Positions 152 to 22,928 of a DNA stretch of 30,063 bases are shown here, one piece after another; position 1 is the stretch's first letter, and the number at the start of each line of letters is the position of its first letter. A model generated the notes under the pieces. It had not been told where the DNA came from, ran no database searches, and was given only the letters and a program-made list of their open reading frames with translations. A program made the translations under genes and the position numbers. Source of the stretch: Candidatus Hodarchaeota archaeon (lineage in GTDB: Archaea; Asgardarchaeota; Lokiarchaeia; Sigyniarchaeales; SOKP01); assembly GCA_048887225.1 (NCBI GenBank), contig JBHLJY010000026.1, positions 1 to 30,063 on the forward strand, in the 5' to 3' direction.

Positions 152-1435
152 TTACAGCATTTTAAATAATTTGCGTAAGGCATATGACATAATAAATTGT
201 TGTATCTGTCGTGTCCCAGCGCCAATCTCCTGGATTCTAGAAATCCCTAATAAATCTTGCATCAATGTGTTATCACATACACCAGCCCCCCCCATTAAAT
301 TCGCACTCTCATAGCATACTCGTTCTGTTAATTGAGCACATTGATATTTTAATTGAGCAACATATGCAGCAAGTGATAAATTAAACGCTTTAGGAAGAAC
401 ACCTTTGTTCTCTCTTATTTTTTCGTCAACTAGCCCACATATGTATAAGAGTGAAAGAGTCAAGTTCATAGTTTTCGCCCATAAATCTGTTAAGGGGAAT
501 CCAACACCTTGAAACTTTATAATTTCTTGGTCAAATTGTTTTCTCATATTAGCGTATATTATAGCATGGATTACTGCGTTCCAAGCTTGTGAAACATATA
601 AAATACATCCTCCTAATCTCTCTAAATTCAGTCCTTCAAAAAGATATTCTCGACCTACACCTGGAGTTCCTATAACATATTCTTTAGGAACGCTTAAATC
701 TTTGAAAGTCTCTTTACCAAGATACATTCTTGGAGTCCAAGGAATATTCACTCTTTCAGCAGTCCAACCATCCCATGATGTGTCTATTAAAAACTGCCCC
801 ATAGTGTTTCCGTTGTTTTTTTCCGCACATGCATAAACAATGGCCCAATGAGCTTTAGGTCCGTTTGTTTGATAAATCTTTTCTCCATTAATTAAAAAAC
901 TCCCGTCACTCTGTTCTTCACAAGTAGTTAACATATGGACCGCATCAGACCCCCTCTCGGGTTCTGTAATACATATACATCCTATTTTTTCCCCAGTCAC
1001 CAATTCTTTAATCGCTTTTAAGCGAACATCAACCCCTTCATGATGAAGTACTAATGGATTTATCGCTAGTACACAAGCACCCATAGCCATATTCAATTGA
1101 GGATCAAAAAAATCAGATGCAAGAATTCTTAAGAGCTCAGCTTTCAGCCCATAAGGCTCAAAATTAAATCCTACACTCTCGAAATTATTCACCCTCGTAA
1201 GATATCCCGCCTTACCAATTTCAGGAATCCATTCATAAAAATCTTCATTATGAGTAATGTTATGCTTCTTCTCGAAATCAATATAAAATTTCTGGATTTT
1301 TCGAAGAAAATTAAAATCATCTGGCTTTAATATGCTAACTAGATTACTATTTAAAAATTTATATCTTGTTTTTAATTGTAGTTTTTCTAAAATTTGATCA
1401 TTTATACACTGAACATCTCCTTTTTTATTTAACAT
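152..1435 (-). CDS. Acyl-CoA dehydrogenase, isovaleryl-CoA dehydrogenase-like
   Basis: CITEPERGSD, INGEKIYQTNG and RKQFDQEIIKFQGV motifs. EGLNLERL together with EIGAGT matches the IVD-type placement of the catalytic Glu. Confidence 0.9.
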   Translation of the reverse strand: MLNKKGDVQCINDQILEKLQLKTRYKFLNSNLVSILKPDDFNFLRKIQKFYIDFEKKHNITHNEDFYEWIPEIGKAGYLTRVNNFESVGFNFEPYGLKAELLRILASDFFDPQLNMAMGACVLAINPLVLHHEGVDVRLKAIKELVTGEKIGCICITEPERGSDAVHMLTTCEEQSDGSFLINGEKIYQTNGPKAHWAIVYACAEKNNGNTMGQFLIDTSWDGWTAERVNIPWTPRMYLGKETFKDLSVPKEYVIGTPGVGREYLFEGLNLERLGGCILYVSQAWNAVIHAIIYANMRKQFDQEIIKFQGVGFPLTDLWAKTMNLTLSLLYICGLVDEKIRENKGVLPKAFNLSLAAYVAQLKYQCAQLTERVCYESANLMGGAGVCDNTLMQDLLGISRIQEIGAGTRQIQQFIMSYALRKLFKML

Positions 1436-22256: not shown

Positions 22257-22453
22257 CGCCCCTGGCTATAAGAACCCCTTAGTATTTCCCATGGGGATTT
22301 CCCGCTGCAAGGAAGCCTTGCTTTGTATGGATCGAACATGCGACCGCCCGGTTAACTTCCGGAGCTACTGTGATATCCAGTAACTAAGCCGGGTGCTTTG
22401 GGCGGGCTGAGCATGTTTATGCTCAGTGCTCTACCTAACTGAGCTACAGAGGC
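22257..22453 (-). tRNA. tRNA-Asn(GTT) with three insertions (about 22398-22430 in the D-arm; 22357-22386 at 33/34; 22267-22326 in the T-stem)
   Basis: Removing 33, 30 and 60 nt gives a 74-nt cloverleaf: GCCTCTG/CAGGGGC acceptor, GCTC/GAGC D-stem, CCCGG-CTGTTAA-CCGGG, GCATG-TTCGATC-CATGC, G73. Confidence 0.85.
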
Positions 22454-22473: not shown

Positions 22474-22611
22474 TGCTCCCGCCGGGATTTGAACCCGGTT
22501 ATCGACTATACATCAAGAGGATAGTTGTCGGCGGGGTGAAAGCCCGCAATGCTTTCAGCAGCTCTCTCTTATGAGGCTTGGAGAACTTTGGCCGGACTAC
22601 ACTACGGGAGC
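22474..22611 (-). tRNA. tRNA-Glu(TTC) with two non-canonical introns (22554-22588 in the D-loop; 22499-22526 at the variable loop/T-stem junction)
   Basis: Removing 35 and 28 nt gives a 75-nt cloverleaf: GCTCCCG/CGGGAGC, GCGGG-CTTTCAC-CCCGC, CCGGG-TTCAAAT-CCCGG. Confidence 0.9.
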
Positions 22612-22814
22612 ATTTTTTCTTCAATTCTTAGGGGATATAATAATCTAATAAAATCTCATTTGTACAAAATCAAACTAAACTATCATATAATGTGAATTTT
22701 GTAATTCATTTTTACATTAAAATTTTTCTTTTCCTATCTCTCTATTACTTTTTTAAAGGGATACTAGATTATTTTAATTATATAAAGAGAAATAAAGTTA
22801 AAAATAAAAAAAAG

Positions 22815-22928
22815 TGCGGGAAGAGGGATTTGAACCCCCGAACTCCTACGAGACTGGATTCTAAGTCCAGCGCTTCCAACGCGCCTTTAACCAATAACGC
22901 GCCTTTAACCAAACTTGGCAATTCCCGC
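22815..22928 (-). tRNA. tRNA-Leu(TAG) with a 29-nt D-arm intron (22874-22902)
   Basis: GCGGGAA/TTCCCGC acceptor, CTGGA-CTTAGAA-TCCAG, long variable arm; 85 nt after intron removal. Confidence 0.92.
22878..22912. repeat. 17-bp direct repeat AACGCGCCTTTAACCAA (period 18) inside tRNA-Leu(TAG)
   Basis: Copies at 22878-22894 and 22896-22912. Confidence 0.95.

Follow-up and report, generated by a model that had tools for sequence, protein, structure and literature searches.

The tRNA-Asn locus and its setting

The stretch of DNA analysed here (the window, 30,063 nucleotides) belongs to a 3.27-Mb archaeal draft genome of 49 contigs with 30.5% GC and a completeness of 98%; the records of congener genomes carry Asgard MAG labels from their submitters (Hermodarchaeota, Thorarchaeota or Promethearchaeota). 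On the minus strand, from 22453 to 22257, lies a 197-nt tRNA-Asn(GTT) gene in which an acceptor stem, a D-arm, an anticodon arm with the anticodon GTT, a variable loop and a T-arm can be read by hand, broken by inserts of 33, 30 and 60 nt. A preliminary description made from the letters alone had reported a tRNA-Asn interrupted three times, with 123 of 197 nt inserted, and the sequence left after removal of the three inserts bears this out: its 74 nt are called as tRNA-Asn(gtt) by ARAGORN, and their minimum-energy fold is the cloverleaf (-29.3 kcal/mol).

The gene is divided into four exons, all on the minus strand: exon 1 (22431-22453; tRNA positions 1-22), identical or nearly identical in orthologues, with the 5' strands of the acceptor stem and D-stem, the D-loop and the first base of the 3' strand of the D-stem; exon 2 (22387-22397; 11 nt, positions 23-33), with the remaining D-stem, position 26, the 5' strand of the anticodon stem, C32 and U33; exon 3 (22327-22356; 30 nt, positions 34-63), with the anticodon GTT, the 3' strand of the anticodon stem, the variable loop, the 5' strand of the T-stem, the T-loop and C61-A62-U63; and exon 4 (22257-22266; positions 64-73), with the last two bases of the T-stem, the 3' strand of the acceptor stem and the discriminator G, CCA not being encoded. 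This assignment is independent of any drawing of splicing motifs, because the 74-nt exon sequence matches the uninterrupted tRNA-Asn of two relatives (L012 and L015), in the second of which the gene order Leu(TAG)-Glu(TTC)-Asn is that of the window.

Standard finders miss the gene: ARAGORN returned no tRNA in the window, and Rfam only the neighbouring tRNA-Leu. The preliminary description had asked whether the genome has any further tRNA-Asn gene; none was found in the 98%-complete genome, either by pattern searches that tolerated up to four mismatches, by the tRNA model of Rfam or by ARAGORN when introns were permitted. Only 27 tRNA matches pass Rfam in this genome. Most relatives likewise contain a single match to tRNA-Asn. 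As far as sequence can indicate, the locus is likely to be a functional, single-copy tRNA-Asn(GTT) gene with four introns at three sites, spliced by EndA and RtcB.

The neighbouring tRNA genes are also interrupted, tRNA-Glu by two inserts and tRNA-Leu by one. The tRNA-Glu(TTC) gene (22474-22611, minus strand), with inserts in the D-loop and the variable region, ends 20 nt ahead of tRNA-Asn; the spacer contains neither a T-run nor a TATA-like box, and a TATA-like sequence, TTATTATAT, stands about 28 nt upstream of the 5' end of tRNA-Glu (near 22639). The tRNA-Asn gene is probably co-transcribed with the tRNA-Glu gene, and such a transcript would need six excisions if the 60-nt insert consists of two nested introns, as proposed below. 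The tRNA-Leu(TAG) gene (22815-22928, minus strand) has a D-arm insert with a 15-nt direct repeat (GGTTAAAGGCGCGTT) across the exon-intron border, and its Rfam match begins only at the second copy of this repeat.

Introns at positions 22/23 and 33/34

BHB motifs were laid out from 5' to 3' as outer helix, one strand of the central helix, 3-nt bulge and inner helix, followed by inner helix, the other strand of the central helix, 3-nt bulge and outer helix, with the cut after the second base of each bulge. Intron 1 (22398-22430, minus strand; 33 nt at 22/23) fits a relaxed HBh' form of this layout: its central helix joins AGGT (22436-22433) to GCCC (22403-22400) with three of four pairs, its bulges are AG|A and AA|A, and an 8-bp hairpin (22426-22419 with 22414-22407) is reached across an internal loop. 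Because of a 5-nt repeat, AGCAC, the boundaries of this intron can be shifted as far as 26/27, and 22/23 is the register that gives the best motif. Several relatives have a shorter intron at 22/23 in which AGGT pairs with GCCT at all four positions and the inner stem directly adjoins the helix.

Intron 2 (22357-22386, minus strand; 30 nt at 33/34) has a clean HBh' motif: CCGG pairs with CCGG (4/4), the bulges are CT|T and AA|G, an 8-bp inner stem is formed by 22385-22378 with 22370-22363, and there is no outer exon helix. Among more than 25 relatives its 3' end, CCGGAA|G, is invariant and its inner stem covaries; both the 22/23 and the 33/34 sites are occupied in more than 25 relatives, with covarying stems and conserved 3' ends. 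Both introns are as the preliminary description had them, a relaxed 3/4 helix in the D-arm and, at 33/34, a clean CCGG/CCGG helix and the bulges CT|T and AA|G, to which the register 22/23 and the 8-bp inner stem are added here.

Near the 3' end of intron 1, CCGCCC (22400-22405, minus strand) is complementary to GGGCGG of exon 3 (22344-22349, tRNA positions 41-46), a pairing that may constitute a competing fold of the precursor. In one relative (L008), a single case, the two elements read CCACCC and GGGTGG; both have changed, and the pairing between intron 1 and exon 3 is retained.

The 60-nt insert at position 63/64

The third insert splits CAT|GC in the 3' strand of the T-stem at 63/64 and contains the features that had been described for it, namely the hairpin GCAAGG/CCTTGC, the other named hairpins and an inner copy of CCATG. 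The preliminary description had been unable to draw a canonical BHB for the insert as a whole, and a motif scan agrees: no one-step BHB was found, the central helix at the outer junctions reaching only two of four pairs. The same description had offered tandem or nested introns, four or more in total, as one explanation. The nested form of this proposal, with a total of four, is the one to which the comparative data point; the tandem form fails, since cutting at U63|A together with A29|T30 first leaves no motif for the 3' junction.

The inner intron (22268-22297, minus strand; 30 nt, insert columns 30-59) is defined by a central helix of GGGA (22303-22300) and TCTT (22273-22270), by bulges AA|T (22299-22297) and AT|A (22269-22267), and by an inner stem of CCCC (22296-22293) with GGGG (22278-22275). 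The central helix pairs at four of four positions counting two G-U pairs and is weak in the window, where the other two pairs are A-U and G-C; in the window it is separated from the inner stem by one unpaired T (column 53). Its build of 1 + hairpin + 4 + 2 = 30 nt is the size and build of the other introns in this tRNA-Asn gene family.

What remains of the insert is an outer intron in two parts on the minus strand. Part A (22298-22326), which occupies columns 1-29 of the insert, includes both the hairpin GCAAGG/CCTTGC and the tract GGGAAA, and is built like the 30-nt introns at 63/64 in relatives; part B is a single invariant A (22267, column 60), which after excision of the inner intron would stand second in the AA|G bulge on the 3' side of the outer intron. 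Joined in this way, the outer intron would be 30 nt long and end in GGAAAA|G, followed by GCC. Its central helix would then be formed by GGAA of the insert and by the exon strand ATCC, A58-C61 of the T-loop (22329-22332, minus strand), with three of four pairs, a class of motif that is frequent by chance (10.64898/2026.10.13.758758). The two introns have different flanking helices, a 4-bp stem adjacent but for the one unpaired T in the inner intron and a hairpin across an internal loop in the outer.

The inner motif lies wholly within the 60-nt insert, and its boundaries, 29|30 and 59|60, recur in 13 aligned sequences and in a 59-nt variant. The outer 3' bulge (A29, A60 | G64) is interrupted by the inner intron, and the GGGA(A) strand is common to both central helices; with this bulge split and this strand shared, the outer motif would be formable only after removal of the inner intron. 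We regard it as probable that the 60-nt insert is one 30-nt intron lodged within the 3' bulge of a second 30-nt intron, bringing the introns of the gene to four.

Conservation and covariation of the proposed nested motifs

The 60-nt form is found in eight species genomes of two genera and in six further metagenome sequences, 14 distinct sequences in all, 13 of them 60 nt long and one 59 nt; the alignment used for the counts below (A1) comprises the 13 sequences of 60 nt, the 59-nt variant not being among them. The central helix of the inner intron pairs in 52 of 52 cells of this alignment, and its two variable columns change between C and T only. A28, A29, T30, A58 and A60 are invariant, and column 59 varies freely. 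At least six different sequences of the inner stem occur at the same place; of its seven pairs, four have changed in both partners, and of the whole tested structure, five, counts that are taken over related sequences and so overstate independence. The covariation score exceeds that of all 500 of 500 shuffles, and 84-85% of cells are paired with the structure, against 35-59% with slid partners.

Single-sequence minimum-energy folds recover the inner central helix in 12 of the 14 sequences, with a mean z of about -2.2. RNAalifold on ungapped alignments returned the outer helix TCC x GGA in all 13 sequences together with the outer hairpin and did not return the inner motif, likely as a result of the inner stems lying in differing registers.

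The outer intron has counterparts in relatives that carry an ordinary 30-nt intron at 63/64 (L004, L007, L014, L028-L030, L033, L034, L036 and L037). These use the same site and the same T-loop ATCC strand, which pairs with GGAT, GGGT, GGGA or GGAA before AA|G, at all four positions where its partner is GGAT or GGGT. Their bulges read AT|N and AA|G, except that L037 has TT|G for the second, and they are as long as the outer intron of the window with the inner one excised; the ending predicted for the joined product, GGAAAA|G, is found exactly in four of them (L007, L028, L030 and L033). In these introns the additional 30 nt are missing, and a single step suffices for removal. Recurrence of the same three insert sites in many relatives, together with the covarying stems, indicates that the inserts are not due to chance.

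In four other relatives (L008, L010, L044 and L047, in genomes G024, G012, G051 and G122) the tRNA-Asn gene has four separate introns, at 22/23, 33/34, 59/60 and 63/64, the last two separated by a 4-nt exon, CCAT. In the first of these (L008) the 63/64 helix pairs better with the 59/60 intron present (TCCC x GAGA) than with it removed.

Alternative readings of the insert

The chief alternative is that the 60-nt insert is one intron removed in a single step, a broad-specificity (alpha-beta)2 EndA accepting a bulge-helix-loop or another relaxed shape and the inner hairpin serving as structural padding. [quoted passage not shown] That pairing, however, places the 3' cut five bases too early and is absent from the second genus, which has CAAT there; the central helix at the outer junctions stays at two of four pairs, and the four bases before the 3' bulge have no conserved partner. 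Removal in one step also leaves unexplained the invariant AAT and A-N-A bulge columns and the restriction to C-T changes opposite GGGA, and we consider it unlikely. An alternative pairing between columns 3-6 and columns 55-58 was rejected because it has the wrong BHB geometry and is inconsistent across sequences.

Nesting could also operate in another register or order, the inner cut falling one base earlier (GGGA x TTCT) and leaving two bases behind, and the outer intron being removed with a 3' bulge of 4-5 nt. A strict scan of the window in fact picked out this register (positions 156 and 185), the CCCC/GGGG stem lying immediately next to the helix, and a count by hand over the alignment gives 51 paired cells out of 52, but the register fails in G002, where A faces G. 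Its product would be a 31-nt outer intron with a 3' bulge unlike that of any natural 63/64 intron of the relatives, and there would be no explanation of why A60 is invariant next to the variable column 59; the register used here is preferred because of its product and the invariant A60, and the shifted version is judged improbable. Least probable is that the locus is a pseudogene, or that the T-arm insert is not removed, with tRNA-Asn supplied from elsewhere. Two standard finders miss the gene and a further copy could be unassembled in a draft of 49 contigs, but neither pattern search nor Rfam nor ARAGORN with introns found another tRNA-Asn, the exons fold perfectly as a cloverleaf, and the layout is kept in 14 diverged sequences with the exons intact in all of them and the two strands of the acceptor stem changing in step wherever both are seen. 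The degenerate gene that the preliminary description had considered is contradicted by this evidence, the layout being conserved across two genera. Its suggestion of an unusual endonuclease specificity is not needed, given that two nested introns require no new enzyme specificity and that the genome encodes an EndA of the usual type, described below.

The insert was also inspected by eye for the TGATGA and CTGA motifs of a box C/D RNA, and both were absent.

Predicted splicing path and splicing enzymes

If the 60-nt insert consists of two nested introns, its removal would take two rounds: in the primary transcript, GGGA of the outer intron would pair with TCTT near the end of the insert, presenting the bulges AA|T and AT|A and, with the capping stem, completing the inner motif; EndA would cut this motif and RtcB join the ends, leaving GGAA followed by AA|G; GGAA would then be free to pair with ATCC at T-loop positions 58-61, presenting the outer bulges AT|A and AA|G; and a second round of cutting and joining would link U63 to G64. 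Cleavage at these bonds and in this order is predicted from motif geometry, conservation, covariation and the presence of the enzymes. Four metatranscriptome runs were compared with the locus (five runs contained about 4% of words): only unspliced contigs touch exon 3, and these carry other introns and thus come from relatives. The runs that contain DNA of the locus are sediment metagenomes.

The genome encodes two paralogues of EndA, each of 201 aa. The alpha-like paralogue (G000 C1:186656-187261, plus strand) is closest to the catalytic alpha subunit of Aeropyrum pernix (3p1z_B, E = 5e-35), keeps Tyr, His and Lys, and aligns without gaps through the Crenarchaea-specific loop, where it has a Lys opposite Lys44 of the specificity loop. 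A role of Lys44 in EndA was reportedly described by Hirata et al. in 2011. In the second paralogue (C3) the catalytic His is replaced by Ser, which identifies it as beta-like. Asgard archaea possess an (alpha-beta)2 EndA with an L1 loop (PMC5829648), and by its sequence the EndA of this genome is of the usual Asgard/TACK (alpha-beta)2 type with the L1/CSL loop. This answers the question of EndA type that accompanied the preliminary description: an (alpha-beta)2 enzyme with an alpha-like subunit retaining Tyr/His/Lys and a beta-like subunit without His.

RtcB is also encoded, and its gene is itself interrupted by a 29-nt insert (G000:C13:33458-33486; locus L068, about 209-237) inside the conserved GVGYDINCG motif, the unspliced frame reaching a stop. 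A canonical HBh' motif is formed by this insert, with a 9-bp stem, a central helix of TTGG and CCAA (4/4) and the bulges AT|A and AA|A, and removal of the insert restores the frame and the GVGYDINCG motif. It is present in G002 as well, and eight relatives have a homologous stretch that is shorter by exactly 29 nt. The rtcB mRNA may thus depend on the very splicing system of which RtcB is part, and the two could form a feedback loop.

Relation to known interrupted tRNA genes

Nested introns with an obligatory order of removal have been described in pre-tRNAs of Crenarchaeota with multiple introns (Sugahara et al. 2007, RNA 13:671; Tocchini-Valentini et al. 2009, PNAS 106:20246, via PMC3978253). 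[quoted passage not shown] The present case differs from those so described in belonging to an Asgard archaeon and in its site, the 3' strand of the T-stem at 63/64, and also in that the inner intron lies in the outer 3' bulge, one base from the outer cut, with the GGGA(A) strand common to both motifs. The crenarchaeal cases were tested in vitro, whereas the tRNA-Asn case is known from its sequence.

Multiple introns in non-canonical locations, including D-arm sites of the 22/23 type and T-arm sites, are also found in tRNA genes of Thermoproteales, again with relaxed HBh' motifs and a broad-specificity EndA (PMC4033280, PMC4090602). The maximum there is three introns per gene (PMC4033280, PMC4090602), against four in the window if two are nested and four separate introns in the relatives mentioned above.

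Asgard tRNA genes are known to be heavily interrupted. Introns are reported in 92-95% of the tRNA genes of three complete Asgard genomes (PMC11291895), and PMC11291895 and 10.64898/2026.10.13.758758 describe Asgard genomes in which most tRNA genes have several short non-canonical introns, many missed by standard software and mostly with BHB-type boundaries; the genome of the window resembles them in having several intervening sequences per tRNA gene. A 2026 preprint by Goswami et al. reports Asgard tRNA genes with up to five intervening sequences each (10.64898/2026.10.13.758758). A term search of the text of this preprint yielded no mention of nesting, nor do the intron passages retrieved from PMC11291895 mention it. 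The labels of the congeners (Hermodarchaeota, Thorarchaeota, Promethearchaeota) fall outside the focal families of these two reports. Heavy interruption of Asgard tRNA genes is thus already published, as is the ordered nesting of tRNA introns in Crenarchaeota, and the arrangement proposed here would be a case of such nesting in a new lineage, at a T-stem site.

Implications and possible origin of the inner intron

Once read as two nested introns, an insert that appeared to have no motif obeys the ordinary rules, and an apparent exception is resolved; the solution is tidy, and the mechanism is not new. Censuses that count inserted stretches would undercount Asgard tRNA introns, the 60-nt insert scoring as one, and nesting is worth testing wherever a long insert lacks a motif. 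The relatives provide a natural series at one site, from no intron through a 30-nt intron and the proposed nested arrangement of 30 nt within 30 nt to separate introns at 59/60 and 63/64 around a 4-nt exon, and this series could be used in the study of ordered splicing by (alpha-beta)2 EndA and of intron gain and loss.

A speculative and unlikely proposal is that the inner intron was gained by insertion, as an exact 30-nt unit, in what was already the 3' bulge of a BHB motif, at a distance of one base from the outer cut. If BHB bulges are favoured targets of insertion, for instance by the EndA/RtcB reaction running backwards and the product being copied into DNA, the locus would be a natural record of the gain of a tRNA-type intron, completed by relatives with 0, 30 or 60 nt at the same site, and the GGGA strand used by both motifs would serve as an inbuilt switch of splicing order, or checkpoint, in maturation of the T-arm. 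A blastn-short search of every intron against the whole genome for repeats or mobile copies matched only the locus itself.

The inner intron echoes the last part of the outer one: in several sequences of the 60-nt form, columns 36-61 of the alignment (for example L023:1202-1227:-) contain GGGAAAT or a near copy twice, 13 nt apart, and G102 has a tandem duplication of a 13-nt unit. These repeats hint at growth of the inner intron by local duplication, as opposed to import.

One relative (L017; G020:C199) has a second, partial tRNA-Asn at about 948-1130 (plus strand), with the exons as far as the T-loop and without introns 1 or 2. This copy, which could be a duplicated fragment or a rearrangement, is inverted relative to the full gene and runs straight into tRNA-Leu(TAG).
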